Shown one piece after another: positions 26,817 through 61,064 of a stretch of 64,000 nt of DNA. This DNA is from an uncultured virus (IMG/VR IMGVR_UViG_3300031994_000100). Taxonomy: Duplodnaviria; Heunggongvirae; Uroviricota; Caudoviricetes. The stretch is taken from IMG/VR virus record IMGVR_UViG_3300031994_000100; one strand, 5' to 3'. The number at the start of each line of letters is the position of its first letter. Position 1 is the stretch's first letter. The notes under the pieces were generated by a model that was not told where the DNA came from, did no database searches, and saw only the letters and a program-made list of their open reading frames with translations. The position numbers and the translations under genes are program-made.

Positions 26817-27020
26817 TATTGCTCCCTCCGTTCCTAAAGTGTTATTTAAGTGATTTCATATTTTGTACTCTTTAGAGTGTTTTCAATCCAGTTGCTCCAA
26901 GTGATGCGCAATAGACCGAAGTTCTAACGCAATGCGACAAAGAATGATACTAACGACGATAGCCCCAGAACTAATTATTAAACTGATAAGTGTCATTCTC
27001 ATCTCACTACCTTATGCTAT

Positions 27021-27308
27021 TCAATAATTAAGCTTTGTCCTTGCATAATATTCGGTTATTTCTGATAATGGTACGACTGTTACGTCTTTTACACACGTTT
27101 GTCCTTCGCAAAAATCACTTAAGAAACTTATTGTTTCATAATCAGAATCGCTTTGGCAAAAAACAACCTCTTCAAGCAATTCCCATTCATCATCATAATC
27201 ATAACTATATTTTTGCCGAAAAAATGCTACTACATTTTGTGGAAAAGTATTTTTCCAATATGCTCTAACCGCATCTGCGATATAGTCATAACTATTTTTT
27301 TCAATCAT
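27021..27308 (-). CDS. hypothetical protein (AT-rich block)
   Basis: 95-aa ORF. Confidence 0.6.
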   Translation of the reverse strand: MIEKNSYDYIADAVRAYWKNTFPQNVVAFFRQKYSYDYDDEWELLEEVVFCQSDSDYETISFLSDFCEGQTCVKDVTVVPLSEITEYYARTKLNY

Positions 27309-27448
27309 TTTCGCTTCACCGCCCGTATTAAAGTGTTATTTTAGTTTCAGCCCCGTTTCCGGGGCGATGCTACTGAAACGGGTCATTAACATCGTAATAT
27401 TTCCCGGTCATTTTATATCACCCCTTTCACGATGTAATAAGGTGTTAT

Positions 27449-27823
27449 TTAAATCGTTTTAATTGCTTGAACTATGTAATCGACAACTTCTTTTACTTGC
27501 TGAACTGTCCAAGTAACATTATCAAATGTTGCTGTTTTAGCTATAAGCATTTCAATACTAGTTGATTTTCCTGGAAGAAAGATCGACAATACGATCATAA
27601 GTAATCCAAGGATTCCAGCTATGATAGCCCATTTTTTAAATATTTTCATATAACACTCATTTCTCCTATATACTTCTACTTGATACACATTATACATCCA
27701 TCCAATTGTCAAGCCAACGAAAGTAGCTATGCATACTCCGCCTAAAATTCCAAAAACAGTTTGTGCAATACTTAAAACGTTAATCCAATAAAAGACTTGT
27801 GGGGCAATAATGTAGTTTGTCAT
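27449..27823 (-). CDS. membrane protein (AT-rich block)
   Basis: Two TM segments; stop overlaps a TTAAATAACAC site. Confidence 0.65.
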   Translation of the reverse strand: MTNYIIAPQVFYWINVLSIAQTVFGILGGVCIATFVGLTIGWMYNVYQVEVYRRNECYMKIFKKWAIIAGILGLLMIVLSIFLPGKSTSIEMLIAKTATFDNVTWTVQQVKEVVDYIVQAIKTI

Positions 27824-28016
27824 TTTTCTTCTCTTTCCTTTCTTGACGAAACATACTGGTCGATATATTTTTCAAGTATATCGGATACACATTCGTCTAG
27901 GCTTTGCTCTTTCAATTCCGCCAAATCTCTCAATATGCGAAAACTGCTACACATTAATTCGATTTCCATTGATTCCGTTATTCGTGGCATTGTTTATATC
28001 TCCCTTATGGTGTTAT

Positions 28017-28190
28017 TTATTTCTCGAAGTAAACGTTGAACAAATCTTTTAATTCTTCAACCCACTTTTTAGGGATTGACATATTTGCATCTGTGTACCG
28101 TTCAATTGCATCCAGTATGTCCTTTGCTCGTCTTGAATCATGAACCCATCTTGGCTCTAAACCAAGTGGAGGCTTTTTCAATTCACTCAT
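28017..28190 (-). CDS. small hypothetical protein (MSELKKPPLGLEP...)
   Basis: 57-aa ORF read by hand; GAGAGG RBS; junction sites on both sides. Confidence 0.55.
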   Translation of the reverse strand: MSELKKPPLGLEPRWVHDSRRAKDILDAIERYTDANMSIPKKWVEELKDLFNVYFEK

Positions 28191-28239
28191 CTTATTTACC
28201 TCTCTTGTCGTGTTAATTTAAATCAGAATGAGCACAAAC

Positions 28240-28350
28240 TGGCTGCGCCGGTGAGGATTTGCACCTCACAGTTCGAGATGGACGTGGGCCTGACGTCTCG
28301 AATCACTCCCACTGCTTTGCCATTGCGTTTACCTATTCCGCCACGGCGCA
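28240..28350 (-). ncRNA. tRNA-like RNA 1 (no canonical anticodon arm)
   Basis: 7-bp acceptor TGCGCCG/CGGCGCA + GCCA; D-arm GCGGAATAGGTAAACGC; T-arm GTGAGG-TGCAAAT-CCTCAC. Confidence 0.7.
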
Positions 28351-28419
28351 TGGATTAAGTGTTATTTCGAAAAAGAAATGAGAGTCCGCCAAATAGCGGA
28401 ACTCTCGTCCCGGTTCGTC

Positions 28420-30239: not shown

Positions 30240-30339
30240 AAAAATCCCTCCTAAAATGTTTTATAGTTCTTGCTTCCATCAAAGGAGGTGTAAATTTCGC
30301 GAATGAAAAATGAAAAGGGGAGCCGAAGCTCCCGGTTCC

Positions 30340-30558
30340 TCAGTACACTTCATCTCTTATGTCCCGAGGTTCCTTTGGCTTCTCTCCCCATGCTTTGGGA
30401 TCGTCCAGCTTAAACAGTTTCCGGACCATACCGTTCACGCAGTTCGCTATTCTTCTGGACAGGTCGAGCATGGTTCCCAGCAGCTTCGGCACTGCTGCCA
30501 AAATTGCTATAAAAACCACGATATCCACCAGAAGTTTTGTAAACCACATAAACACCAC
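30340..30558 (-). CDS. small membrane cassette gene
   Basis: Follows motif copy 30586-30610. Confidence 0.55.
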   Translation of the reverse strand: MVFMWFTKLLVDIVVFIAILAAVPKLLGTMLDLSRRIANCVNGMVRKLFKLDDPKAWGEKPKEPRDIRDEVY

Positions 30559-30659
30559 TCCTTTTTCTGTTTTTAGTTTTCATCCCATTAAGCGAGGTGT
30601 TAAATTCGCGAAAAAAGCAAGACCAGCTTTTTCAGCTAATCTTGCTTTTTGACTTTTAT

Positions 30660-30860
30660 TTACTCATCTCTCAGGTCCTCCTCTTTCAGTCCCAGTTCTT
30701 TAGCTGCCGTCTTATACTGTTTATTTACCTTACACACGTCACACCGGTCCCTGCCTTCCCGGTTGCACATTGCACACCGGATGCAGCAGTTGTCCAGCCA
30801 TGTGTTCAGTTCTTCAACAGAATTAAACTTTGCTTTAAATTCAAACTTCATAGTCCTCAT
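30660..30860 (-). CDS. Cys-rich cassette gene
   Basis: Follows motif copy 30893-30917. Confidence 0.55.
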   Translation of the reverse strand: MRTMKFEFKAKFNSVEELNTWLDNCCIRCAMCNREGRDRCDVCKVNKQYKTAAKELGLKEEDLRDE

Positions 30861-30969
30861 CCTTTCTGACTTTTATGGGGAGTCACCCCTCTCACTATGA
30901 GGGCAGTATTTGACGCGAGGCGTTACATTGAGGCAAAAAGAAAGCGGCCTGTTAAAGCCGCGATCTCTC

Positions 30970-31119
30970 TCAGTTCCATGCGTTGTTCCAATTTTTCCTC
31001 TTTTCAGCGGCCTGCTGGTACTGGAGTTTCTCCAGCTGCCTGTAGGCGTAAATCATCCGCCCGATTATGACAGCCTCGAAAATCAGTCCGAGGCCGATGA
31101 AAATTCCTTCTACGAACAT
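30970..31119 (-). CDS. 49-aa membrane peptide cassette gene (MFVEGIFIGLG...)
   Basis: Read by hand; GGAGG RBS right after motif copy 31132-31156. Confidence 0.55.
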   Translation of the reverse strand: MFVEGIFIGLGLIFEAVIIGRMIYAYRQLEKLQYQQAAEKRKNWNNAWN

Positions 31120-31214
31120 GTTATTCACCTCCATTATGAGGCCGGTAAATGACGCGCCGCGTTACTTTTGGCAAAAAAGAAAAGACCCGCTTTTTCAGCG
31201 AGTCTTTGCTCCGG

Positions 31215-34590: not shown

Positions 34591-34944
34591 CTACTCCGCC
34601 ACCGCGAATGACCTACATCCAACGATGCGGCCTGCGCTGTCACGCACAGTCTCGTTGGGCATCAGCAGATCGCTCGCACCACGTCCGTACTGGATCGCAG
34701 CCTTGGCAGTTGCCAGGCTCACAATCAGGTACGTTCCCTCGACAGGTTCCGGTAAATCTACCGGTTCCCCGAAGGACGTCCGTGTGATCCTGTAACCGTC
34801 ATCGGTCACGTGATCCAGCACAGTCGTCTGTGCGGCTCTCGCCACGCCCTGAGACGGGAACGTAACAGACGTTCCGTCATCTCGGATGTAGTTGACGTCA
34901 TGCGGCGTCAGATTGACGAGTTTCATACTCTCACCTCCTTTCAC
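34591..34944 (-). CDS. hypothetical cassette gene (LVNLTPHDV-type phage protein)
   Basis: Follows motif copy 34942-34966; likely start at MKLVNLTPH. Confidence 0.65.
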   Translation of the reverse strand: MKGGESMKLVNLTPHDVNYIRDDGTSVTFPSQGVARAAQTTVLDHVTDDGYRITRTSFGEPVDLPEPVEGTYLIVSLATAKAAIQYGRGASDLLMPNETVRDSAGRIVGCRSFAVAE

Positions 34945-35301
34945 TATGAAACCGGTATCTGACGCGAAGTGTTACTTTGACAAAAAAATATAGAGCGCAT
35001 TGTACACGCGTTCTATATTTCGGCAGAAAGCGTTGGCTTGCCACTTAGCTGCCTTCGTTAGTCATCACAGATGACCACCGACACGACCCATCGGGTCCTC
35101 CACGTACGAGCCAACGTCCCATACGCCCGGAAGTGCCAGTGCAGCACTTTCCGCTTCGTAATAGTCAGTCGTCTCAGTGTGGACTGTCACGAATTCGCGA
35201 CGGTTGCCATACATGATGACTTCAAAAAGCCATTCATACAATTGGTTTTCACCTCCTTTCTTTCTCCTTATAATAGATATGTAAATTTCGCGAGGCAAAA
35301 A

Positions 35302-36306: not shown

Positions 36307-36440
36307 AAGAAAACCTCCTAAAAATATAATATTTGTCGAGAGTGTTACCTCTCACTATGAGGCCGGTAATTGACGCGAAGCGTTACATTGAGGCAAAAAA
36401 GAGAAGGACGGCATTTTACGCGCAGCCCTTCACTTCCATT

Positions 36441-40150: not shown

Positions 40151-40303
40151 TATGCGGGTGAGGATTTGCACCTCACATAAAGAGCATTTCAACGGCCAAC
40201 TAGAGACAACAGGTGGCAACGTGCCGTAGCTCTTCTTAGAAGATAAGACGTATGTCATATCAACCGGCATAGTGTAAGCGTCTACCTGTTCCGCCACCGC
40301 ATA
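40151..40303 (-). ncRNA. tRNA-like RNA 2 with about 95-nt central insertion
   Basis: Acceptor TATGCGG/CCGCATA; D-arm GCGGAACAGGTAGACGC; T-arm identical to RNA 1. Confidence 0.7.
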
Positions 40304-40312
40304 ATGTCTTAT

Positions 40313-40359
40313 TTTAAATCGTTTTAATTGCTTGAACTATGAAATCGACAACTTCTTTT
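40313..40359 (-). repeat. 47-bp orphan copy of the 3' end of gene 27449..27823
   Basis: Matches 27448-27494 with one mismatch. Confidence 0.85.
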
Positions 40360-40798: not shown

Positions 40799-40908
40799 TT
40801 CAAAAATCCTCCTTTTAATTTCAGAAAAAGAAAAGAGAGGCTGTCTTATTCCTCTCCATTACAAGATGTGTAAATTTCGCGAATTCGAAAAGAAAAGGGG
40901 AGCCCCGC

Positions 40909-41253
40909 TTATTCAGCGGGAACTCCTTCCTCGTCGGGCTTACTTTCCTCTTTGCCGATGATCTGATCTGCGATGAACTGGACAGCTCCGTCGATTCCGC
41001 CGGCCTCCTCGAATACTTTCGAGTCGACGAACTTGCGCTCGAGCATCGTGTAGACAACGCCGTCGACCACCTCTCCTTCGGCAAATCCCTTGAGCCCGAA
41101 GATGTAATATTCATTACCTCTCCAGGAATCAAGTTCAATGCTTACGGAAAGGTGCTCGTCGCCGTCTTCATAGACGCTGACCACCTGTTCACCATGCTCT
41201 GCATTCTTGAGAGCCTCGGCGAAATCCCGAACCATCTGTTCCTTCTTGTTCAT
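40909..41253 (-). CDS. acidic hypothetical cassette gene
   Basis: Follows motif copy 41292-41316. Confidence 0.6.
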   Translation of the reverse strand: MNKKEQMVRDFAEALKNAEHGEQVVSVYEDGDEHLSVSIELDSWRGNEYYIFGLKGFAEGEVVDGVVYTMLERKFVDSKVFEEAGGIDGAVQFIADQIIGKEESKPDEEGVPAE

Positions 41254-41345
41254 GGGTCATTCCTCCTTAAAAGAGTTTTTATTTAGTATCCCATAACAAG
41301 ATGTGTAATTTTCGCGAATCTGAAAGAAAAAGGGAAGATCGGCTG

Positions 41346-42855: not shown

Positions 42856-43095
42856 TCATTCTACTTCTCTCTTTTCCAACCATTCGTTGACCTCGGACAT
42901 CCAATCGGGATGTAAGCGGCCAAGCTCTTCTGCTTTGGCTTCCTCGGCATCGCACCACTTTTTAAAGGCTTCTGCTTTTTTGCGGTATCTGGCTTTTTTG
43001 TACTGCTTCCGCTTGCGCGGGTTATGCTTGTCCGTCTGGCGAGTAAGTCTGTCTAACCACTTGCTCATGCTTTTCGATCTTCTTTCAGTGTGCAA
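42856..43095 (-). CDS. basic hypothetical protein
   Basis: Likely start at MSKWLDR. Confidence 0.5.
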   Translation of the reverse strand: MHTERRSKSMSKWLDRLTRQTDKHNPRKRKQYKKARYRKKAEAFKKWCDAEEAKAEELGRLHPDWMSEVNEWLEKREVE

Positions 43096-43242
43096 CAGTG
43101 TTATTTAAGTCACGACCACGGTCTATTTCCAATAACCGCTTGTGCTTCCTCATAGCACAGCTTTCGGAACCACTTCCATTTGCTGAAAATCCGGTCGATC
43201 ATTCTATGACGAATGATAAATCTAAGAATACCGCGAATGAAT

Positions 43243-43728
43243 TTATGCATCGTTTACACCTCGGTGCTTATTTGATTCACATTCTTCGCAAACGAACAAC
43301 CGCTTGCCATTAAGTTTCTTCCCGCATACTACACAATTTCCGTTAGCAACGACTTCTGCTGTATCTTCCGGCTTTTCCGGCAACGGCATCCAATGAGTAG
43401 GTTCGTGAATGGCCCCGATAGCACCATATACGTTACCGTCCGTTCCAGCCCAGAATCCTTCTCCGAATGAAGTGTAGTATGCCAGTCCAACATACCCGAT
43501 GTATTCTTCGTTTTCGTCACTATACGGCGGAACATATACGAGGACCGGAGGAAATTGTTTGTCCGGCAATCTTTCCTTGACGCTGATCCATCTGTTTACA
43601 GATAACTCTCCTGCGTTAAATCCATTCGCAAACATCCAATCGCCGAAGCCTTTTATTTGTGGGTCATCCATGAACTTAATAAAGTCAGCGCCACCGACTT
43701 TGTAATGGTCTGGATTGGTATCTTTCAT
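43243..43728 (-). CDS. DUF551-like protein
   Basis: WISVKERLP..PTHWMPLPEKP. Confidence 0.75.
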   Translation of the reverse strand: MKDTNPDHYKVGGADFIKFMDDPQIKGFGDWMFANGFNAGELSVNRWISVKERLPDKQFPPVLVYVPPYSDENEEYIGYVGLAYYTSFGEGFWAGTDGNVYGAIGAIHEPTHWMPLPEKPEDTAEVVANGNCVVCGKKLNGKRLFVCEECESNKHRGVNDA

Positions 43729-43830
43729 GATATAAAACTCCTATTTAAGTTATAAGGCGTTCTCCAACTATTACGCCAGCGACTGTAGTTATAAAACCGA
43801 TCGCTACAATGCATAAACCGATTAGTATGC

Positions 43831-44190
43831 TCACTTTGCATCCCCCTTCGTTTTAATTAAGCGCCGACTCTGAAGGGATATGCGAATACTATCACCTTCG
43901 GCAACGATTTCTTCGCCAGAAACACGAATAATAATGTCGTTTAAAAACGCATCTCTGCGTCTAAGCGCTTCATCATTAGGGTGAATCATATTCTTCACAA
44001 AAGCGGCCGTCTCGTTTTGATCTAAAACCGGCTTTTCTTCTTTCAACGGGCATTCTTTTGGCCGAGCATCGTAATTATACAATTCTTTGTTTGCTGCACA
44101 TGGGCATGCAAGTCCGACCACGTCGGAGAGGCCAATAATGTCACATTCGTGGCAATTGTTTGGCATTGATACATCTGGCAGGCAAACCAT
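43831..44190 (-). CDS. hypothetical protein (MPxxCxxC..RPxxCPL type)
   Basis: GGAGG RBS. Confidence 0.55.
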   Translation of the reverse strand: MVCLPDVSMPNNCHECDIIGLSDVVGLACPCAANKELYNYDARPKECPLKEEKPVLDQNETAAFVKNMIHPNDEALRRRDAFLNDIIIRVSGEEIVAEGDSIRISLQSRRLIKTKGDAK

Positions 44191-44969
44191 GGTTAGACCT
44201 CCATTCTTAACGCTTTCTCAAGGTATTATTTAAGTTATGTTTGTTACGATGCCTAAAGCAACAAGCAATGCTGATTTCCAACCGCGGATATATTCTTCGT
44301 CTTCATTTATAGCTTTATCTGCAGCTGCAATATACTCCTCGATTTCCTTAATGGCTTCGTCTCTAGTCATGTATTAAACTCCTCCACCTTTTTTACTCAT
44401 GGTTCTCTGTCTTTCACCACATCTGTCAGAACTTCAAGCAACTCTGCAATGGTGTGGTTCCGGAGAAAACTGTCGATTTCATCATACAGTTCTTCTTTTG
44501 CATATCCGGTTGATCCGTCCTCGCCATATCTTCTCATTGCGCTGTCTCCCTTCCGCATCGTAGTTAATGTGTTATTTTCCAGTTTTTTTCAAAGCCTTTT
44601 CGTGTGTCATAAGGGATCGCAATCGCATCCATGTCCCTTCTTGAAATGCAAATACGACCTTTGCTGTCGTAAAGCATCCATAAATCGTAACTTTCTCCTT
44701 GCCGGAACCCACATGAACCGTTTTTACCGAGAAAGACAGCTCTAATTTCAACAATCTTAGGCTTTGCCATACGATGCACCTCCTTGCTGCCTTTCCGTGT
44801 TATCTAAGCGACAATCATTTCATCGGAATCTGGATGTTCAACAGTACAGTTCAGCGTTTCGAAATCTGTAGTAAACACTGTTATTTCAGCGTGTTCGATT
44901 CTTGAATTGTCTGGGATTTTCTTGTCGATTTCTTCTAACAATTCGTTTTTACTCATTGTGTTTACGCTC

Positions 44970-46729: not shown

Positions 46730-47147
46730 GTGATTTATCCTCCTTGATCACATTAAAGTGAACACGGTCTTTTTTAATCAGCTCTTCAACCGGCGTGTCC
46801 AAACGGAACACAAGCCCGTCTCCGTCATCCACCCCGGCGACGAGATCCCCGTCGATTACATTATCGCTGTTCAGATAAAAATATAACTCCACAGCGGCGG
46901 CCATCAGCATTACGCCCGTCAGGATAATGATAATTCCGCGTCCGTACACGGCGAAAAATTCAACATATCCGGACAAAACAGCGGCAGCAAGACAAAGTAA
47001 AAGAGACACAATAATTACCGACATGAAAATTCGTCTGTGCCCAAGCATACCGTTAATCTCCTCCTTAAAAAAATGAAAAGGACAGTATTAAGTCCTTTCA
47101 TTAAATGACGTGTAAATTTCGCGAAAAAAAAATAAGGGCAGTCGTTT

Positions 47148-48399: not shown

Positions 48400-49326
48400 T
48401 CACAGGCAAAGCGCAGCATACATCTCATCAAAGCCATCTCCGTAGAGGTGAATGTAGGTATTATACGTCACCTGAACGGAACTGTGTCCCATAAGCCGTG
48501 ATAGTATTTTTACATTCACACCCTTGTAGAAGCAATTCGTCGCAAACGTATGTCTGAACGCATGCTCGCCATAGTATGGAACTCCGGCTTCGGAGCAGAT
48601 CTTTTTAGTTTGGTACATCAGCTGCTTATAAGAGTAGCGACGCCCATTATGTTCAAAGACCCACTCCGTTTGCCGGCGTTCCTTCAAAATTTTCAGAATG
48701 GCCATGGCGCGCTTCGTCAACGGTACCAGGCGATTGCTTGACTTTGACTTCGGAGAATCCTGATAAAGCGCCTTCTTATTCGAGGTGGGGAAGACGATCG
48801 TGGCATGTACATGGAGCTTGTTTTTCTCCATCTCCACATCGCTCCATTTCAAAGCGAGCAGTTCGCCCGATCGCAGCCCCGTCTCGATAAGAAAGGCAAC
48901 AGCGAGATAACCAGTTTTGTCAGGGTTACTCAGGACCAGAGAAAGCAGTCTATCCTGATCTTTCTGATCGTAAGCGGCAATGTCCTTGGTCTTCTTCTGT
49001 ATTTTAGTTTCTGTAGGCAGTCTGACACCGATCGACGGGTCCGCTTTAATCAGCTGCATGGCCGCTGCCTGTTTCAAAGGCGAAGTGACAATTCGCAGCT
49101 GCTTTTTCACCCCGCTCATGCTATACCCGGAGTCTACGAGATCGTTAACATACCGTTGGATATCGAAAAAAGTGATAGCGCCAATAGGTTTCTTAGCGAT
49201 CTCGTAAGACTCGAGGGCGGTCCTTGATACTTTCAGTCGCTCGTAAGATGCAGCTTTGATCGTATTGCGTTTGAAAGTATCAAGCCAGGTGTCTATGAAA
49301 TCCAGCAAGATAGTTGATTCGTCCAC
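48400..49326 (-). CDS. int: tyrosine recombinase/integrase
   Basis: TGLRSGEL, PKS, HAFRHTFAT, LMGHSS and TYNTYIH catalytic set; GTG 49326 after GGAGG (ORF open to 49419). Confidence 0.92.
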   Translation of the reverse strand: MDESTILLDFIDTWLDTFKRNTIKAASYERLKVSRTALESYEIAKKPIGAITFFDIQRYVNDLVDSGYSMSGVKKQLRIVTSPLKQAAAMQLIKADPSIGVRLPTETKIQKKTKDIAAYDQKDQDRLLSLVLSNPDKTGYLAVAFLIETGLRSGELLALKWSDVEMEKNKLHVHATIVFPTSNKKALYQDSPKSKSSNRLVPLTKRAMAILKILKERRQTEWVFEHNGRRYSYKQLMYQTKKICSEAGVPYYGEHAFRHTFATNCFYKGVNVKILSRLMGHSSVQVTYNTYIHLYGDGFDEMYAALCL

Positions 49327-49386
49327 TTTGGTTTTTCCCTCCTGCAAAGTGGATTCGCAATTGTCAAGGTGCAAAGGTTCGACCGA

Positions 49387-49416
49387 AGTATAGCTTTTTT
49401 GAATAAACACTGTCAA
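49387..49416 (-). promoter_or_regulatory. sigmaA-type promoter for the integrase
   Basis: TTGACA-N18-TATACT on the minus strand. Confidence 0.55.
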
Positions 49417-49457
49417 CACCTCCTCGTTAAGAAGAGGTGATTTTACGCGAGCGAGAA

Positions 49458-51497
<2,040 letters not shown>

Positions 51498-52199: not shown

Positions 52200-52222
52200 T
52201 TGTTCAATAAACCTCCTGTAAA

Positions 52223-53836
52223 TTAAATAAATTGAAGAGTTTCGGTCGTCGGGTCGACCGTAAGACTGATAGGGGTGATCAATCCGCTGGAATCAACATA
52301 AAGCAGTTTTCCGGAATTGATAGCCCCTAAATTCTTATCAACTTTTTCATCAATAATATTCGAATCAATGTTTGACTGGATGACTGCCCAATCCAGCCCG
52401 GATGCCTGTGTGCCGTCCGTAACACAGATGATCATATCGCCGACTTCGCAAGCCTGTCCGGCATAGGTTCCGGCGGTTGCGACCTTATAGGTCCACCCGA
52501 CTTCATGTGTATCTGGGAGTGCAGTCACCGTTCCACCGGCACCGAGCGTGCCTTTGAAAACCATCGCGTCATTGGCTGCAAACACTTGATTGACGAAGCT
52601 TTCCGTGGCGAGCTTGTTGCCGGCAGCATAAAAATCTCCGGCCGCCTTAACTTTTCCATCCCATTGCACCGAAAACGCATTATGCCGTACCGTATCGGAT
52701 GCGCCGTTTCCGATAATGAAAGCTTCGGCGCCATCCGAGAGGTTATACCACTTGGAGCTGTTCCATACACTGTCCGAATTGGGCGTTTTACAGCCGTATA
52801 CATTTCCGCTGTTTTTTACAATAGCTCCTGCGACATAACTCTTTCCGGGAATCCAGGCTTCGATATCCGAACCGGCCGCCGGTGTTGCGGCAACGTTGTA
52901 ACTACCATGTGCGGACAGGCCTTTTGTATCAGCAATCGTGTTGTGGCCGCTGGCATGGGAATATTGCCCAGACGCTGTACTGTAGTATCCTTCTGCGTGG
53001 GAATATTGTCCGGAAGCGGTTGTTGCCCCTCCCTCTGCGTGAGAACCCTGACCAGAAGCGGCCGTGCTCATACCCTCCGCATGAGACCCAAAAGCAGTAG
53101 CCGACGTTATGTTTCCTTCGGCATGCGCGGCAGTGGCAGACGCTGTTGTTTGACTTCCTTCAGCGTGAGAGTATCTGCTGGACGCATTCGTATTTGCACC
53201 CTCGGCATGAGCAAAATCACCGGAAACGGTCGTTTGTCCGCCTTCCGCGTGGGCACAATACCCGGATGCAGTAACCTCGTATCCGAAAGCAAAACTGTAA
53301 TCCCCGACATCGGTTGACTCTTTTCGGCCGCAGCTCAATGTCGTGTCGAGAACTGTATTCATTCGGTCCGCTTTACCGGAAATATTCTGATGTTCAGTGA
53401 GAAAACCGCTGTCGTTTGCCAGATCGGATGTTTTTGTCGGAATACTCGGTTTGTCCGTCAGATCGTTGTAGCTGATGATTGGCGCTGACGCGGATGTCCC
53501 GCTCGCACAATTTATAAACCAGGCGGTCCCATCGTAAGTAAAAGCCAGCACCGACCCGGCTGTCCACGAAGAGCTTTCATCAACTCCGACGTGGGTATTC
53601 TCATCCTGATAAATCGGCAAATCGCCGGTTGAATTGACGTTCATGGTCGGGTTTTCGGCCGTGTTGGTATTTGTAAATTTTACCCAGATGGTTACGCCGA
53701 CGATCAACTGATCAAAGTCTGGGCATGATACAACCTTAGCCGCAACGTCGGCCAAGGTTTCGCATGTGCCATAGAGGCTCGACCCAACGGGGACAGGGCT
53801 TCCTCCGTCAATGGAAATCCGAGCTACATAGCTCAT
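52223..53836 (-). CDS. tail fibre with YadA-head-like (xHAEG) repeats
   Basis: About 9 14-aa repeats of type ASGxxSHAEG; SYNDLTDKPSIPTKTSDL motif. Confidence 0.8.
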   Translation of the reverse strand: MSYVARISIDGGSPVPVGSSLYGTCETLADVAAKVVSCPDFDQLIVGVTIWVKFTNTNTAENPTMNVNSTGDLPIYQDENTHVGVDESSSWTAGSVLAFTYDGTAWFINCASGTSASAPIISYNDLTDKPSIPTKTSDLANDSGFLTEHQNISGKADRMNTVLDTTLSCGRKESTDVGDYSFAFGYEVTASGYCAHAEGGQTTVSGDFAHAEGANTNASSRYSHAEGSQTTASATAAHAEGNITSATAFGSHAEGMSTAASGQGSHAEGGATTASGQYSHAEGYYSTASGQYSHASGHNTIADTKGLSAHGSYNVAATPAAGSDIEAWIPGKSYVAGAIVKNSGNVYGCKTPNSDSVWNSSKWYNLSDGAEAFIIGNGASDTVRHNAFSVQWDGKVKAAGDFYAAGNKLATESFVNQVFAANDAMVFKGTLGAGGTVTALPDTHEVGWTYKVATAGTYAGQACEVGDMIICVTDGTQASGLDWAVIQSNIDSNIIDEKVDKNLGAINSGKLLYVDSSGLITPISLTVDPTTETLQFI

Positions 53837-53974: not shown

Positions 53975-54172
53975 TCAGCCGTTGCTGTCCACCGCGTCAT
54001 TCGCGGAAACCACCAGCATCTCGTTATTTGCATCGTATTCTATTTTCATTGACGATCTGTCGGATGAGCCGCCCTGATGATCCCAGTTTTCTTCCAGGTG
54101 TTGAAGGGCGTCTTCGATGGAACCGCCGGTATTCACACCGGAAAGGGCGTTAATTCTATCAACGATCGGCAT
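53975..54172 (-). CDS. hypothetical protein
   Basis: AGGTGA RBS. Confidence 0.5.
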   Translation of the reverse strand: MPIVDRINALSGVNTGGSIEDALQHLEENWDHQGGSSDRSSMKIEYDANNEMLVVSANDAVDSNG

Positions 54173-54185
54173 CGTATATCACCTG

Positions 54186-54536
54186 TCAAACTGGATGAGG
54201 AAAATCGTAGGGGTAAGGGTAGTGACCGCTCATCTGGCTCATCGCAGCGGAATATCCCTGAGAATAGCCGTCAGCATAGCTCCGACCGCCGTCGCGGCTG
54301 ACGTACCGTCCGGTCATTGGACTACGTCCACGACGCCCGCTGAAGCCTTCTTCAGGCTGTTCATACTCCTCGGCTTCCTTCATCGCCTTATAGGTCGCCA
54401 GGCTCTTCATCGCGTGAGACAGCTTGTCGACCTTATCAAGATCCTGAACAGACATCTCAGAGCCGTTCTTGAACTTCTGTTCCAGAATCTCAAGCTCTTT
54501 GCACATCGCCTTTTCAAGGCTTTCAAACTTATTCAT
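54186..54536 (-). CDS. hypothetical protein of the conserved phage module
   Basis: DKLSHAMKS..RGRSPMTGRYVSRD. Confidence 0.7.
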   Translation of the reverse strand: MNKFESLEKAMCKELEILEQKFKNGSEMSVQDLDKVDKLSHAMKSLATYKAMKEAEEYEQPEEGFSGRRGRSPMTGRYVSRDGGRSYADGYSQGYSAAMSQMSGHYPYPYDFPHPV

Positions 54537-54549
54537 TGTTCATTCCTCC

Positions 54550-55011
54550 TTACGCAATCCTGAGCCTGGTCACCTCAACGTTGAGGTTCCGCAGATTCAA
54601 CGCCGGGGCAGGCGTCGTCTCTGGCGTTGCAGATACGCTTGCGTTCTCAACAGAAACCGTATAGCAACAACAGCTCGGCACATCAATAATGGCGAAGCCG
54701 CTCACGTTCCAGTAATTGTCAACGGCTGCCGGAGTGGCAGCTGAAATGCTGGTGGGAACAATCTCGCCGTCGATTGCCAGAGCAAGCTGAATCTCTCCGA
54801 CGGTTCCGCCGGTAGGCACAGCGATATTGCCGTCATAGGAAACGCGATATCTCGCAAACGGCTGGCATCCCCAATTGGTTCCACGAAGGGTCAGAATCCC
54901 GCTTCCCGGGCGGTGAAGAACCATGCCACAGTTGCAGCGATTCCCGTCGTTCAAAACAGCGGACGCTCCGGGCTGTACCAGCTGCACATCGTTATAAACA
55001 AACTCTGCCAT
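54550..55011 (-). CDS. beta-rich hypothetical protein of the conserved phage module
   Basis: HRPGSGILTLRG, GNIAVPTGGTVG and CCCYTVSVEN. Confidence 0.7.
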   Translation of the reverse strand: MAEFVYNDVQLVQPGASAVLNDGNRCNCGMVLHRPGSGILTLRGTNWGCQPFARYRVSYDGNIAVPTGGTVGEIQLALAIDGEIVPTSISAATPAAVDNYWNVSGFAIIDVPSCCCYTVSVENASVSATPETTPAPALNLRNLNVEVTRLRIA

Positions 55012-55050
55012 GTTTATCCTCTCCCTGTTAAATATCAGTCATAAAGACCA

Positions 55051-55086
55051 AAAAAGAGGCTGCTTCGCCCGAACGAGGCAGCCTCT
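55051..55086 (-). terminator. Rho-independent terminator
   Basis: AGAGGCTGC..GCAGCCTCT followed by a T-run on the minus strand. Confidence 0.7.
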
Positions 55087-55112
55087 AAATGACTAAATTC
55101 CGAGGAATATAA

Positions 55113-55910
55113 TTAAGTTCCGGCGTACCCACCGCATCCGCCATAGCCAAAGCCATTGCCACAGCAGTTGGGATTCTGCACCACGTAAGCAGGCCGCGGA
55201 ACCGGAGCCAGATACTGCTCAAGGGCAGAAGTCTGTGCTTCATTGTTCGCCAGAATCTGCGCAGTCTGCGCGCCCTGAGACGCAGCAAACCGCAGCGCCT
55301 GATTGTCGCTCCTAGCCTGATCCAGCGCGTTCTGCATACCGGCAATGCGATTCTCGTAGTTCTGACGGATTCCGTCGAGCTCCAGCTGGCACAGCTTGTC
55401 CATCACGGCCTTGCTGTTCGCGTCGCAGTTAGCCCGGGTAGCAGCAGCTTCCTGAGCAATGGCAGTATTCAGGCCGGCCGTGGCCAGACGATTCTCGCAA
55501 CAGCAGTTCTGGAAGGAAGACTGCAGTGCAAAATTCTGGTTCATATCAGCCATCTGGCGGTTATTCGCGGAAATTTCAGCCTGAGCGAAACCTCCGGAGA
55601 TCGCCTGATTCACGCCCGCAAACCCGGTGGCCATGCCGTTATTCACACCGGCAAAGCCGTTGCACAGAGCGGTCTGAATACCGTTGATCCCGGTCGTCAC
55701 AGCACTCTGATCGAAACCGCGCTGAATATCCGCGCCAACAAATCCGCCGCCGTTGCCGGCGCCATTCCCACCGAAGCCGTTGCCCCACCCGAGAATAGCC
55801 AGCAGAATAATGATCCACCAGGCGCTGTTGCCGCCAAACATTCCGTCGTTTCCATATCCGCCATAAGCGGGAGCCACGGGCATGTACATTCCATTATTTT
55901 CGGTAGTCAT
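55113..55910 (-). CDS. Gly-rich membrane protein with CCCENR motif (conserved phage module)
   Basis: WWIIILL TM segment, IQRGFDQ, QNCCCENR and PAYVVQNP. Confidence 0.75.
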   Translation of the reverse strand: MTTENNGMYMPVAPAYGGYGNDGMFGGNSAWWIIILLAILGWGNGFGGNGAGNGGGFVGADIQRGFDQSAVTTGINGIQTALCNGFAGVNNGMATGFAGVNQAISGGFAQAEISANNRQMADMNQNFALQSSFQNCCCENRLATAGLNTAIAQEAAATRANCDANSKAVMDKLCQLELDGIRQNYENRIAGMQNALDQARSDNQALRFAASQGAQTAQILANNEAQTSALEQYLAPVPRPAYVVQNPNCCGNGFGYGGCGGYAGT

Positions 55911-56170
55911 CGTTTAAAACATCCTTTCTATATTCGGTAAGTTCTTTTGAGCAATAATCCGACAAAGCTAATTAGCCCAATGGAACCACCGCCTTCCTTA
56001 TAGGTTTTTGCTAGGAAATAGTGTTTTTATGCTAAAATCAGCGTTGCTGACTTAACATCATGAAATTGTCGCTAAGCGACGTAAACAAGTCATCTGCGCC
56101 GTTTACGTAAATAGCGACTCTTCCGTTAAAGCGATTTAGTTTTAGTGATTGATGTGATTTAAAGTGTTAT

Positions 56171-56437
56171 TTAAGTCACAACCTGATTCCAGAACTCAGA
56201 CTTGTCGTGAAGGATCTGAATACCATTTTCCAGACAGTATTCATGCTCTTTGTAGCAATCAACATCGTCTTCCCATTCATCCACAAACCAAGCACAATCA
56301 GCTTTTTCAACGGAATCGACAACAGTGAGCTTCCCTTTTGCTTCCTTTTCCGCTTCTGCAACCGCTTTTTCGGTCTGCTCTTTAATGACCCCATATGTTT
56401 TGTACTTCCGATCAATGCTAACATACAGTTTTTTCAT
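56171..56437 (-). CDS. short DUF4406-like protein, resembling 19963..20301
   Basis: MKKLYVS..ADCAWF..W..C..EH..GI pattern. Confidence 0.55.
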   Translation of the reverse strand: MKKLYVSIDRKYKTYGVIKEQTEKAVAEAEKEAKGKLTVVDSVEKADCAWFVDEWEDDVDCYKEHEYCLENGIQILHDKSEFWNQVVT

Positions 56438-56452
56438 ATCTCATTCACCCCT

Positions 56453-58885
56453 TTATGCGCTGACAACATTCGGCAACCACTTCTTCATTCCAGCCCAGAT
56501 CGTTCTTGCGCTTTGCCTTGCGCCAAGATCGTTCATGTGGATATTGTCCAGAAGGTATTGTGGCGTATTTTCTGAAATTTCACTTTCTTTATTTTCCCAT
56601 ATGATATGCACACCAAGGCTTTCAACACATTTTCCGATTTCCTCATAATATTCAAACTGTGTCTGATTGTTAGTGTTTTTTGCTGTTGATGCAGTGATCC
56701 CTTTGCCATAATGGTCAAGCACAACAAACAAGCTAATATCTGCATTCTGCGAATAGATATAGTTGATTGCAGATCGCACACAGCCGCATACAGATGTTTC
56801 AGCAGTATCATACCAGTTGCCGAGCTTATCATAGTTATGATAGTAATCGTTCACGAAGCCTTCAAGAATACAGACACGTTTGTTGGCAAATGATGCATAC
56901 GATTTAATTCTGGCGAGAATATCAAGTGACGGATAGTCTTCCCGAGCGAGAATTGTCGCGGAACCGATACCCTGATTGTCAAACGTAATCCCGGAAAGCG
57001 CAGGAAGATATTGCAGATAACCGCCTGTTGTCTGCGCCCGATATGTCAAACTTGTGCCGAAAGCTACGCCTTGCAACCAATACCATTCTGAACTACTGTC
57101 TATATCGCTTTCGATATCTGCAAGCCTTTCGCTCAGAGTGTTAAACTCTCCACGGGCATTAACAACTTCTTGAACATTAAATGTAAACGGAGCATCAACT
57201 GAATCGAGCGGCTCATAACTTGAATCAGTTTCATACACGGTAAATTCAGTGTATGTTGCAATGCCGAATATAAATCTTGCGTAGTGTGCATTTATCGGCA
57301 TCAAAAATTTCGCTGTACGGTCGCTTTGATACGATATTTGTCCGCCATAAGATTCATCTTCGTTGTACCACAGCGCGAAAACGTTGTTGAAGTTCGTCTT
57401 GTAATAGTGAGCTCCTTCTACTGGAATCAGTTCAGTTTGCCCTAAAGTCGCCGATTGGTGAAAGGTTGTTCCATCACTGTAATAACCATTCATCAGGTTA
57501 TCTTCGCTATTTTTATTGAAAAGATTTAACGGCTGATAATACTGATAAAGTCCGGTCAACTTGGACAGATCATAAACACGCAGTTCCTCACAGTGTACAT
57601 AAAATGATCCAAGGATCGAAAGCACTATCGGAATCCTACAGTAAACTGCTCCATCCAGCGGAATATAGTATCCAGCCTGTTGAGGATCAATGTACCCGAT
57701 AAAATTCTTGTTTTCGTCATACCACAAAGAGAATGCCGTAGATACATTATTTGTGGTAATTTTCATAACACCGTTTATCCAGATGTAATCGGTCATGCCA
57801 ACAGTTGAGGATGAAACAAAGGTATTTGTTCGATCATAATACCCGTTGTAGACATTCCCTTCGGCATCCGGATCAAACATATTGTAGTATTCGGAACCAT
57901 CTATACTTAACAGCCCAAACTTCTTAAGCAATTCCTGACTTTTCCGAAATACTTGTTGTGTCATTTCAAGGGGAATCTGCGGATTATACGGGACATAAGG
58001 TAGCAATGTTGTTCCTTCGTTGACCATAAAGGAATTTAGAATTTGCTTATTAAACGGTATCCGAACGAAGTATGCCCCATCGGGTGCTGTTATATACCCG
58101 TCAACAGTAAAATCTGTGTATTTGATAAAGGAATCGTTTGAGTTTTTAGAATACCAAAGCACATAGCCGTCTGACGATTTGTTGAAGTTGTAATTCCTTC
58201 CGGGAGAAACGCTGATAAAGCCTGAGCTTCGTATGCTGTTACTAGGTACAAGTGTGTTGGTATGATTATAATATCCAGTAGTTGTAATGTCTGGATCGTC
58301 TTTATTGAATAAATTTGTTACGCCATCGAAAAACGTTGTTCTCTCAGGGTCGATTTTTAACTGTGCATTGTCATTTAATGCGCTCTTTAAATCACTAATC
58401 TCATCCTCAAAACTCACAGCATCCCAATGCGCCGCAGTCCACGCTTCCGACGTGGTAATCTCCTGGTTTGCCACGTACGGCTTATCAGCATAAAGGCAAT
58501 AAGTCCCTTCAGCAACCGGATAGGTCAAATCCTCATACTTGGTAGCGATAATAACCGTATCTCCGCGATCGCCCTTTTCTCCGGTCGCTCCCGTCGCACC
58601 GGTGGGAATGCCAAAAGTAAGCTTCGGAGCTCCGCCGACAAGTGCAGAAGTGACTGTCGGAGAACTGCCTTCGGGAAGTTGAGTAGCGTCGGCAGATACC
58701 TGAACCATATTCGTCCACACCGTCCCGCCATCGCCATCCGAAGCCAGTACCTGACCTTCCGTACCATCCGTGCTCGGCTTATCTAGCTTTACGCTGTCAA
58801 GTTCTGTGATCGACTCGCGGGCAGTTTCATCCTTAAAGTTATAAACCGTTCCCGACAAAAGTCTGATTTTACTAATATCTGCCAT
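56453..58885 (-). CDS. tail/receptor-binding protein with repeated beta-domains and C-terminal SGNH hydrolase
   Basis: Short collagen segment; three NLF..GYY..WY..YxR repeats; SGNH blocks FGTSLT, NQGIGS, GFVND and DNIH. Confidence 0.75.
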   Translation of the reverse strand: MADISKIRLLSGTVYNFKDETARESITELDSVKLDKPSTDGTEGQVLASDGDGGTVWTNMVQVSADATQLPEGSSPTVTSALVGGAPKLTFGIPTGATGATGEKGDRGDTVIIATKYEDLTYPVAEGTYCLYADKPYVANQEITTSEAWTAAHWDAVSFEDEISDLKSALNDNAQLKIDPERTTFFDGVTNLFNKDDPDITTTGYYNHTNTLVPSNSIRSSGFISVSPGRNYNFNKSSDGYVLWYSKNSNDSFIKYTDFTVDGYITAPDGAYFVRIPFNKQILNSFMVNEGTTLLPYVPYNPQIPLEMTQQVFRKSQELLKKFGLLSIDGSEYYNMFDPDAEGNVYNGYYDRTNTFVSSSTVGMTDYIWINGVMKITTNNVSTAFSLWYDENKNFIGYIDPQQAGYYIPLDGAVYCRIPIVLSILGSFYVHCEELRVYDLSKLTGLYQYYQPLNLFNKNSEDNLMNGYYSDGTTFHQSATLGQTELIPVEGAHYYKTNFNNVFALWYNEDESYGGQISYQSDRTAKFLMPINAHYARFIFGIATYTEFTVYETDSSYEPLDSVDAPFTFNVQEVVNARGEFNTLSERLADIESDIDSSSEWYWLQGVAFGTSLTYRAQTTGGYLQYLPALSGITFDNQGIGSATILAREDYPSLDILARIKSYASFANKRVCILEGFVNDYYHNYDKLGNWYDTAETSVCGCVRSAINYIYSQNADISLFVVLDHYGKGITASTAKNTNNQTQFEYYEEIGKCVESLGVHIIWENKESEISENTPQYLLDNIHMNDLGARQSARTIWAGMKKWLPNVVSA

Positions 58886-58887
58886 TT

Positions 58888-59157
58888 TTATCGTCCTCCA
58901 TGAAACGGAAATTGTCCGAGAATCTGCTGAATCTGACCGTTGTCAATCCCTCGGGTCTGCTGAATGTATCCAAGAATCTGCTGCGGATCATTCATCATAC
59001 TGTCCGGAACATCCGGAAACTGCTGCTTTACAAACGCCGCCGGATTGGTCAGCGTCCGTAAAATATAATTCGCTTTTTGAAGCGGGTTATTAAACGCCGG
59101 TCCGCGACCGGACTGCTGCATCGCTCCCGCAAGCAATTGCTGATATAGCGGATTCAC
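58888..59157 (-). CDS. Gln-rich hypothetical protein (conserved phage module)
   Basis: MNPLYQQL..DPQQIL. Confidence 0.65.
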   Translation of the reverse strand: MNPLYQQLLAGAMQQSGRGPAFNNPLQKANYILRTLTNPAAFVKQQFPDVPDSMMNDPQQILGYIQQTRGIDNGQIQQILGQFPFHGGR

Positions 59158-59163
59158 TCGCCG

Positions 59164-59664
59164 TCACCCCCGGCCGTTTCCGTTTGCGTTATTATTTCGA
59201 TTTTGATTTTTCTGCGCATTTTCCGCATTCATCCTGGCGATCTCCTGCTTCAGCATGTCAAAATCCTCTTTCGTAACATACTGACTCATGTCCGCGCCCG
59301 ACTGCTGCGTACCAGACTGCCCACTCATCAGCAGCGGATTCGGCTGCTCCTCAATCGTGTAATGCAGCTTCTGCATCGGATTGGGAATCCCGTTCTGGTT
59401 CACGCTTTTCAAATAAATTACTTTATCGGTGCTGTCCCACAACGCAATCGGACTGTTCGCCGGCCATCCGGCAGGAATCTGAAATGCTTTGGCGCCGATC
59501 TCACCGTCAACCCACTCCATTGCCTTTACCTGCGGAGCGGCGGCGTAAGAGGCCTGGCCGACATAGTTCCCGCTCATATACTGAGGACTCTGCGGAACGA
59601 TAGGGGCCGCCTGAGAATAATTCGGCTGCTGATAAAAATTGTAAGGATTGTAATAATTCGGCAT
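59164..59664 (-). CDS. Gln/Pro-rich hypothetical protein (conserved phage module)
   Basis: EWVDGEIGAKAF..LWDS..IYLKS..YVTKEDF. Confidence 0.7.
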   Translation of the reverse strand: MPNYYNPYNFYQQPNYSQAAPIVPQSPQYMSGNYVGQASYAAAPQVKAMEWVDGEIGAKAFQIPAGWPANSPIALWDSTDKVIYLKSVNQNGIPNPMQKLHYTIEEQPNPLLMSGQSGTQQSGADMSQYVTKEDFDMLKQEIARMNAENAQKNQNRNNNANGNGRG

Positions 59665-59689
59665 AAACGTAACACCTTCCTCAAAAAGT

Positions 59690-60088
59690 CTATTTCACTC
59701 GCCAGAAAAAGCTCGGAATCTCGTCTCCGGAATCCCAGCTGTCGTAGTAATCTCCATCGATAACTGCAACGGCATGACTTCCGGTTCCGACAATGTAAAC
59801 ACCAATCGGATGCATTTGACTGAAGAGCCGGATGGTTACACAGCTGGGGCAGCTTTCCGGCAGAAGAAACGGCTCAAAGCCCTGCTGATAAAGATACTTG
59901 CCCCACACTGCGTCTGCACTCGGCATGTTGTATTCCTTCCGACCCAACGCGCATAAATCGTCATACACGTCAAGCCACTTCCGGTTTAAAGCCAAAGAAA
60001 TAGCCCGGACCACACAGTCCGGGACTTCTTTATGGCCGGGATTCGGATTACTTCTCATCCACATTTCAGATGTTCGCCACCCATGCAC
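59690..60088 (-). CDS. hypothetical protein with DCVVRAI / H..V.DG.YYDSWDS (papain-like Cys-His-Asp candidate)
   Basis: Motif order Cys, His, Asp; likely start at MWMRSNPNP. Confidence 0.65.
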   Translation of the reverse strand: MHGWRTSEMWMRSNPNPGHKEVPDCVVRAISLALNRKWLDVYDDLCALGRKEYNMPSADAVWGKYLYQQGFEPFLLPESCPSCVTIRLFSQMHPIGVYIVGTGSHAVAVIDGDYYDSWDSGDEIPSFFWRVK

Positions 60089-60329
60089 ATGCGGCCCAGT
60101 CCATCAGCTGCTCGCTGACTTCGACCGGGTTTCCTTTTTTATCCAGATACGCGTACGCTTTGTCCGTCGTCGAAAGACAGGGCCCGCCGTTGATAATACA
60201 TCCGGTTTTCTGGCAGGCCCCGTTCCTGCGAATGTCACACAGCCAGCATTTCTTCTGCGGCCTGGTTACAATGCTGTTTTCTTCGATCCTTTCGGTAACG
60301 AAGTCTTCAAGCTCCTGCTCGGTGATCAT
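60066..60329 (-). CDS. Cys-rich hypothetical protein
   Basis: Coupled to the holin. Confidence 0.5.
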   Translation of the reverse strand: MITEQELEDFVTERIEENSIVTRPQKKCWLCDIRRNGACQKTGCIINGGPCLSTTDKAYAYLDKKGNPVEVSEQLMDWAACAWVANI

Positions 60330-60604
60330 TCCTCCACATCCTCTGTGGGAGGATCCTGCCAGGGCTCGTCATATCCGAGCGCACGGTCGCTGTCCCCAAT
60401 GCCGGCCGTTGTCGGGTCAACCAGCACACCGATCAGGCCGAGGAAGGTCAAAACCTGACTGATCACACTCATGATGGTGTTTTCAGTAACTACGGGCACC
60501 ACGTCAAACAGCTTCAGGATGTTGAACGCAAAGCCAACGATAATGCTGATAAACATCGTCAACCAGGTCTTGTTCTTAAAACGTACTTTCCAATTGATTT
60601 TCAT
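60326..60604 (-). CDS. holin (phiLC3-like)
   Basis: MKINWKVRFKNKTW..VDPTTAGIGDS..YDEP. Confidence 0.9.
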   Translation of the reverse strand: MKINWKVRFKNKTWLTMFISIIVGFAFNILKLFDVVPVVTENTIMSVISQVLTFLGLIGVLVDPTTAGIGDSDRALGYDEPWQDPPTEDVEE

Positions 60605-60626
60605 TTTGATTTATCCTCCCATCGTG

Positions 60627-61064
60627 TCACAGCCGTTCCGCAAGATACTTCTGCAGCTCGACCTTCGCGTCTTCAACTTTCTCGTTGTTACCGATATTTC
60701 CATAGGTGCTGATCACGAGCATGAATTTACAGATGGCGGCCAGCCCATCCCGGATCTCTTTACTGTTCTGGCGCATGTCGGCGATGAATGACTCATGGTT
60801 ATCCAGCCGTTTCTTGTCCTGCGCCAGGTTCTTCTCAATCTCCTTGAATCGCGGTTCCAGCTTATCAATGACTTTTTGACTTACTTCTTCCGCAAAGCTT
60901 GGCTGTTCCGACTCTTTCTTCTTATGCCGTCTCTCAATAATGGTATGTATGGCATCGTATACCTTATACCCAATCATGAATAAAAGGCATAACGCCAGCA
61001 TCCCATAAATGGTGGTCCACAGCACTTGTGGCGTAAAGTTCTCAACCGTTGGCAAGTTACCCAC
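60627..61064 (-). CDS. membrane protein of the lysis cassette
   Basis: Single TM plus coiled coil, between endolysin and holin. Confidence 0.65.
   Translation of the reverse strand: MGNLPTVENFTPQVLWTTIYGMLALCLLFMIGYKVYDAIHTIIERRHKKKESEQPSFAEEVSQKVIDKLEPRFKEIEKNLAQDKKRLDNHESFIADMRQNSKEIRDGLAAICKFMLVISTYGNIGNNEKVEDAKVELQKYLAERL

Follow-up and report, generated by a model that had tools for sequence, protein, structure and literature searches.

The stretch of DNA analysed here (64,000 nucleotides, called the window below) comes from an uncultured virus of the Caudoviricetes (IMG/VR record IMGVR_UViG_3300031994_000100) and represents nearly the whole of the 64,574-bp virus record. It carries a phage polymerase, small genes, fibre-like genes and lysis genes, nearly all of them on the minus strand. 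The metagenome runs that match it best are of sheep gut origin and may be where it comes from, and the host is presumably Clostridia-like. Here, we concentrate on an open reading frame (ORF) of 810 amino acids (aa) and on the 2.2-kb block which begins inside this ORF and ends behind a small neighbouring gene, at two short palindromic sites that we named A and B. The first-pass annotation, made from the letters alone, had proposed this block to be a swappable tail-tip cassette. The features of the locus are as follows.

58391..58885, minus strand: constant N-terminal part, 165 aa of the 810-aa gene; GC content 0.515
58369..58396, minus strand: site A, in frame; 11-bp arm, spacer GAGCGC, 11-bp arm
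56453..58390, minus strand: variable C-terminal part, 645 aa, with degenerate repeated domains and an SGNH hydrolase domain
56170..58385, minus strand: putative mobile unit, from after the TTAAA of A to the end of B's TTAAA; 2,216 bp, GC content 0.407
56171..56437, minus strand: passenger ORF, 88 aa, of no family, carried inside the unit
56153..56180, minus strand: site B; arm, spacer TAACAC, arm, the left arm containing the stop of the passenger ORF

Both sites were found where the first-pass annotation had placed them. On the minus strand, site A reads TTTAAA-GAGCGC-ATTAAA (58391-58374) and encodes, in frame, D-L-K-S-A-L-N; its core, TTAAA-GAGCGC-ATTAA (58390-58375), corresponds to L-K-S-A-L, where the first L is residue 166 of the 810-aa ORF (56453-58885). 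The block ends at CTTAAA-TAACAC-TTTAAA (56175-56158, minus strand), and the core of this site B (TTAAA-TAACAC-TTTAA, 56174-56159) has the TAA stop of the 88-aa ORF within its left arm. The general form of the site is TTAAA-N6-(T/A)TTAA, with the arm consensus AGTGAYTTAAA; the arms are palindromic, and the spacers of A and B differ at four of six positions. Conservation around the sites ends approximately 11 bp from the spacer, and the conserved stretch measures 16-28 bp. Searching the window for GAYTTAAA-N6-WTTAAAT with one mismatch gave four matches at three places against 0.04 expected, for a pattern derived from these very sites. When scored with an arm profile made from 40 downstream sites (site B of the window among these), A and B are the two top-scoring positions of the window (B is the best), and together they form the top inverted repeat within 50-64 kb. 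The further partial arms that had been described down to about 56124 did not hold up, as their scores are low (ranks 149 and 427 among 127,978 half-sites) and their spacing is 9 rather than 6 bases. Directly behind site B, upstream of a gene of 265 aa, there is a long imperfect hairpin (56040-56130, fold z about -2). The third-best palindromic site (30817-30844, spacer CTTTGC on the plus strand) overlaps the start of a 63-aa ORF and has no unit linked to it.

The 810-aa protein is likely a tail part, as judged from the weak match of its SGNH part to phrog_5240 (tail fibre, E-value 4.8e-10), from the collagen-like triplets which, together with a small domain ending EAWTAAHW, make up its constant N-terminal part, and from the gene neighbourhood. 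The predicted SGNH module was confirmed in the last approximately 210 residues (about 600-810), with Ser in GTSL, G, GFVND and DxxH, and these four blocks (S, G, N, H) are invariant in 40 of 40 aligned sequences. The model of this domain shows the flavodoxin-like fold and has a pLDDT (predicted local distance difference test) of 95, and Foldseek gave template modelling (TM) scores of 0.80-0.84 to the top matches, many GDSL/acetylesterase structures being found. PF13472 was matched on relatives. Pfam gave no direct match on the window protein, the PDB searched by sequence gave zero matches, and there was none for the 810-aa protein among GenBank phages. When viral contigs were searched with the C-terminal side, only the window's own twin was returned, and metagenome contigs yielded one weak match. 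As to the repeats said to precede the SGNH module, inspection by eye shows three degenerate N[LM]F..GYY stretches, but a BLASTP comparison of the protein with itself returned no repeat. The reported shift in composition is real: within the gene, GC content is 0.515 before and 0.405 after the site (Fisher p 1e-5), and the best change point (gene nucleotide 473) has a support interval of 447-508, inside which the site lies (495). Low GC content (0.38) extends about 250 bp beyond site B and is followed by a gene of 0.57.

When the N- and C-terminal parts of the protein were compared separately, homology broke at DLKSA in both directions, and the homologues are not collinear across the site. In 11 of 12 non-self homologues the N-terminus alone is in common (alignments end at 170-201) and the C-termini differ, being of PF03629, PF12708, PF00149, PF13472 and PF12218; the twelfth (P0002) has the C-terminus in common (83%) behind a different N-terminus. 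The same is seen at the level of DNA in two phages, L178 and L200. Their identity is 97.7% across the 2,516 bp that precede site A, and 84% in the final 200 bp of these; between the sites the two phages are unrelated, and behind B they again agree at 86%. We also compared contigs of 4 of the 24 metagenome runs with window positions 54000-61000, in a single comparison of this kind. A 4,463-bp contig of run X4, which belongs to another study, matches the window at 56170-58394 only, with 9 differences in 2,225 bp (99.6% identical). The sequence on both sides of the unit is foreign (1,742 and 496 bases), a different N-terminus is joined in frame, and the spacer directly after B's TTAAA is GGACAC, in comparison to TAACAC in the window. 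In a contig of run X7, the beginning of the unit follows a different N-terminus and an altered left arm, with the match ending at 58389, and in run X5 the unit is covered in short pieces with TAACAC retained. In another locus (L544, about 9900-10100), a remnant of an SGNH C-terminus lies between the stop of the present gene and site B; it is possible that this is the trace of an earlier cassette.

On these sequence comparisons, the 2.2-kb block is a cassette that has moved between phage genomes and ends at the two palindromic sites. The earlier proposal that C-termini are exchanged by site-specific recombination at an in-frame site is supported by the two-way break of homology and by the X4 unit, and also by a constraint on the DNA and by a site-linked recombinase, both presented below.

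The codons of the motif were assessed in loci fetched by protein only (72 and 29, after removing 10 preselected or duplicate ones). In these two sets, LKS[AQEDH][LIFMVT] is written with TTA in 14 of 17 cases (background 6.3%) and in 7 of 7 (background 8.4%), and with AGY in 15 of 17 and 6 of 7. The three TTA exceptions are all in unrelated contexts, and TTA usage is 2% in eight backbone genes of the window. Since TTA is used in 21 of 24 motifs against a background of 6-8%, it can be concluded that the constraint acts on DNA.

The arrangement of the sites was examined in further surveys. A same-strand upstream A site was present in 20 of 80 viral loci chosen by site B, while the other three arrangements were present in 1, 3 and 0; the bacterial control gave 2, 1, 1 and 3 of 80 (the site-B scan of bacterial genomes returned mostly chance matches and served as control alone). 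Most of the 80 matches of the site-A scan are also due to chance, and about 17 are of this class. Among 118 proteins chosen by the C-terminal side, LKS[AQEDH] is carried by 33, in comparison to 4.4 in shuffles (maximum 11). We collected 67 candidate A sites, of which 13 were judged by eye to belong to unrelated genes and were removed. Clustering of the remaining 54 gave 27 groups for the N-side and 49 for the C-side, and 40 of these 54 sites are accompanied by a B-like site, either at the gene end or behind it; a stop codon lies within B in 11 of 25 sites near a gene end. All these cases share ancestry to some degree, thus p-values overstate their independence.

Tyrosine recombinases above the Pfam cut-off are encoded by 19 of 50 site-bearing records. 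Nine of the 19 are armless proteins of 326-347 aa that group together (29-67% to the first), and the catalytic R, K, H-x-x-R, H and Y are invariant in 9 of 9. Their closest family is NF040815 (XerA-like), at 223, 216, 201, 206 and 202 bits against a curated cut-off of 220, which only one of these five exceeds. In eight of the nine cases the gene lies directly behind the cassette gene, outside the unit, and in one it is 12 kb off. When loci were chosen by their recombinase, 12 of 80 (8 of the 73 not preselected) had a perfect site no more than 700 bp away, in comparison to 1 site in 329 kb beyond 3.5 kb. Twenty-seven listed sites point towards the recombinase gene and one away, for a spacer list taken from earlier sites. 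Among homologues of the recombinase, 20 of the 48 close ones have sites next to them, as against none of the 24 distant ones. GenBank phages have relatives at 32-40% only. Among bacteria, homologues were detected at E 1e-100 in 14 of the 401 genomes from one family, while a class-level sample of 401 gave none at 1e-110, and a listed spacer was found within about 1.5 kb of none of 16 bacterial recombinase loci. The window contig has no member of the armless, site-associated group, and 5 of 13 near-complete site-bearing records are without any tyrosine recombinase, which fits action in trans. It is likely that an armless XerA-like tyrosine recombinase moves the cassette, and the window phage would borrow the enzyme from a co-infecting phage or prophage. 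The window itself encodes one enzyme of this class:

48400..49419, minus strand: tyrosine recombinase, the only one of the contig; 21-26% identity to the site-associated family

This is probably the phage integrase; it falls outside the site-associated clade and is a less likely candidate for the acting enzyme.

The same site recurs among small genes and tRNA-like units. Allowing one mismatch, the window has 13 occurrences of TAAATAACAC where 3.0 are expected. Twelve are on the minus strand, and the occurrences cluster at 26.8-28.4 and 43.1-44.8 kb, mostly at the ends of small AT-rich ORFs. These clusters correspond to two further rows of sites.

26834..28369, minus strand: second site row, TAACAC-type; TTAAA at 26849 and 27452, weaker sites at 27343, 28020 and 28369
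43093..44806, minus strand: third site row, at small-ORF ends; 43108 TAACAC, 43748 TAGGAG, 44233 TAATAC, weaker sites at 44579 and 44806

In the second row the sites lie between small AT-rich ORFs and a unit resembling a transfer RNA (tRNA). In the third, a 46-aa ORF (44230-44370) recurs in phage L199 at 92%; the match stops at the site and is followed by a different spacer, TAATAC in the window and TAGGAG in L199. Relatives contain units of 130-200 bp between tandem B sites. The spacer TAGGAG (window 43748 and L199) is also the likely ribosome-binding site of the next small ORF. A 59-bp direct repeat (93%) ending at TTAAA (27437-27494 and 40301-40359) represents the 3' end of a 124-aa ORF, found again 13 kb away and then followed by another spacer. 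The tRNA-like units (window 28247-28345 and 40154-40300, minus strand; also L150, L178, L181, L200 and L584) have a D-arm-like start, a variable middle and a T-arm-like end, and often lie directly between two TAACAC-type sites; ARAGORN gave no match in 17 loci, all of them relatives, and Rfam none at gathering level.

We consider it probable that the exchange is driven by the recombinase, with the junction just after TTAAA. The enzyme would bind two 11-bp arms (AGTGAYTTAAA) around the 6-bp spacer, and the unit would consist of spacer, right arm, body and left arm. In the product, the left arm would supply the stop of the upstream gene (at site A, the codons L-K), while the spacer and right arm would arrive with the downstream piece. 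At site A, a constant tail anchor would thus be fused to a new tip with an enzymatic or binding function (SGNH, pectate-lyase-like, metallophosphatase or acetylesterase), and at B-type sites small genes would be added one by one. The junction is placed here because units shared upstream precede different spacers (about six pairs and X4), while the five shared downstream units all retain spacer and right arm; the raw pairs numbered 23 and 19, many being redundant, reversed or unrelated to the system. This pattern suggests that full spacer identity may be unnecessary. With such a junction the enzyme would not require it, and the unit might be released, either in circular form or by double crossover, and then be inserted at any site. 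Host-range change is the likely benefit of swapping. More tentatively, and at somewhat less than even chances, one may think of a plug standard common to the phage community of the ruminant gut, in which one non-integron Xer-like clade and one 11-6-11 site joining unlike spacers would serve both to place in-frame tips on many unrelated anchors and to string together small genes and RNAs, and would act in trans where a phage has sites only.

A number of observations weigh against this reading. Neither an excised circle nor its joint was seen in the contigs, the only material examined for them; none of 111 in-frame B-type candidates for an empty allele resembled an N-side, and no 90-289-aa homologue of the N-terminus was found. 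The right arm of site A is often decayed. According to the strict motif, 85 of 118 SGNH-side relatives are without it, so other swapping routes exist, and 28 of 48 close recombinase homologues have no listed site within 4.5 kb, although several of them have variant sites or small-gene neighbours. As the 64.6-kb record is possibly incomplete, a recombinase gene could also sit beyond it; the same protein is encoded on another contig, of 92.9 kb. The spacers require particular caution. Their comparison is biased, because the downstream pairs were mostly picked on TAACAC and could hardly differ, and a slip of one base could account for two of the pairs with different spacers. Moreover, spacers are position-specific (GAGCGC in 44 of 67 candidates at A; TAACAC in 30 and GGACAC in 8 of 56 at B), and one phage (L137) has a single rare spacer at three junctions, both of which favour a requirement for homology. 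Free insertion also predicts some spare large cassettes behind the active one, and none was present in nine recombinase loci.

These last points are what one would expect if the same enzyme joined like spacers only (A with A, B with B). Here, a double crossover would let one phage genome take over the tip of another, without excision being possible, and B-B mini-units would come and go between identical spacers, as in a natural form of recombinase-mediated cassette exchange. Homology dependence is usual for Xer/Cre-type enzymes, each locus has one large cassette with no empty alleles found, and the A-site swap pairs have the same spacer or one that differs by one base. However, the same unit is followed by TAACAC in the window and in X5 and by GGACAC in X4, the 46-aa unit is followed by TAATAC or TAGGAG, and further upstream-shared pairs differ too. 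We regard exchange restricted to like spacers as unlikely.

Still less is to be said for the sites being hot spots of general phage or host recombination, by short-homology annealing of the type proposed for PeSL cassettes and for E. coli tailspike motifs or by a host Xer-type enzyme, with the adjacent recombinase as a hitch-hiker. It would be in line with the absence of the enzyme from the window contig and from the five near-complete records mentioned above, and with the many recombinase homologues that have no nearby site; motif-bounded swapping without a dedicated recombinase is also described in PMC10408124 and PMC2839356, as far as the available text of these papers goes. On the other hand, the sequence in common is just 5-11 bp, the arms are palindromic in an 11-6-11 layout, the sites are enriched, polarised and clade-specific around the recombinase, and units are joined across different spacers. 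Finally, that DLKSAL is a protein linker (a coiled-coil neck) kept for its structure, at which swaps survive selection and the DNA palindrome is a by-product, fits the heptad-like stretches before the motif and the hydrophobic residue retained when the right arm decays, but it is already contradicted by the codon test (TTA in 21 of 24 motifs, against 6-8% in the background and 2% in the window's backbone genes) and by the X4 unit, which ends at the second site, a matching one at or behind the gene end, and has next to no probability left.

Recombinase-driven exchange with a junction after TTAAA may be compared with known systems. In the Rin shufflon of Bifidobacterium and Eggerthella prophages, local spare C-termini are inverted at identical asymmetric 11-bp rix repeats (PMC6109161 and PMC8778435, in their available parts). 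Both systems have a constant N-terminus and a variable C-terminus, with one site in the gene and one just 3' of it, in direct orientation; the armless tyrosine recombinase is beside the receptor-binding gene in Rin and here behind the cassette in eight of nine related loci, though absent from the window contig. In contrast to Rin, there are no inverted spare C-termini in the window or in the nine recombinase loci, 27 of 28 sites point one way, the arms are palindromic with differing spacers, and the unit crosses between genomes and carries passengers.

As in integrons, single-gene units are arrayed here in rows with a fixed crossover point between them, the stop is often supplied by the site, and the recombinase adjoins the terminal site (for phage-borne attC arrays we relied on PMC9892861, and for IntI-specific insertion on PMC8138268, in the parts available). 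However, all five candidate enzymes reach only 48-80 bits with TIGR02249 (cut-off 265), their best family being NF040815. The site is a palindrome of 16-28 bp, and a structural gene contains one such site in frame. No long attC-type hairpin is present at A or B, where only the arms pair over 28 bp; the fold z ranges from -2.0 to +0.6 in six stretches around A and B, on both strands. The system works like Rin at the level of the protein and like an integron at the level of the array, and belongs to neither.

Two further cases concern swapping bounded by short motifs. Those of receptor-binding domains in E. coli tailspikes measure 20-95 nt, are loosely conserved and are read as homologous-recombination hot spots, no recombinase being named in the main text (PMC10408124). 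In the PeSL cassettes of T4-type phages, a short common element bounds ORFan units shuffled among phages; PeSL, however, is a promoter and stem-loop of about 100 bp, intergenic only, with no dedicated recombinase identified in the available part of PMC2839356, whereas the stretch conserved here has 16-28 bp and site A is coding.

The enzyme family (XerA-like, NCBIfam NF040815) and the 11-6-11 layout resemble Xer/dif, with the difference that here the enzyme is phage-borne, the spacers vary and the sites are cassette joints. Tn916-type elements have conserved ends and their own integrase with an arm-binding domain; the unit described here encodes no integrase, the candidate enzymes are Xer-like proteins of 326-347 aa, and conservation ends within about 11 bp of the spacer. 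No description of this system was found in the literature, subscription papers and supplements, which may bear on novelty, being outside that search.

Precise swapping of tail tips at an anchor boundary is usually explained by chance or short-homology recombination. The defined site, the candidate enzyme and the near-identical transferred unit make the question directly assayable on plasmids. If true, this would be a second, integron-independent cassette system, which acts inside coding sequence and is common to unrelated phages, and it could serve as a compact tool for in-frame domain exchange.

Several other features of the window were noted. Most of the length of a 1017-aa protein (542-3595) matches phrog_4291, labelled RNA-dependent RNA polymerase. 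The last 65 bp of a fibre-like gene of 679 aa and of another of 537 aa are the same at 97% (49456-49520 and 52221-52285), and both stretches encode the same 18 residues. Intergenic repeats of 45-75 bp are dispersed among the small genes (30275-31195, 34931-35009, 36347-36423, 40855-41337 and 47095-47144) and probably have a regulatory role.

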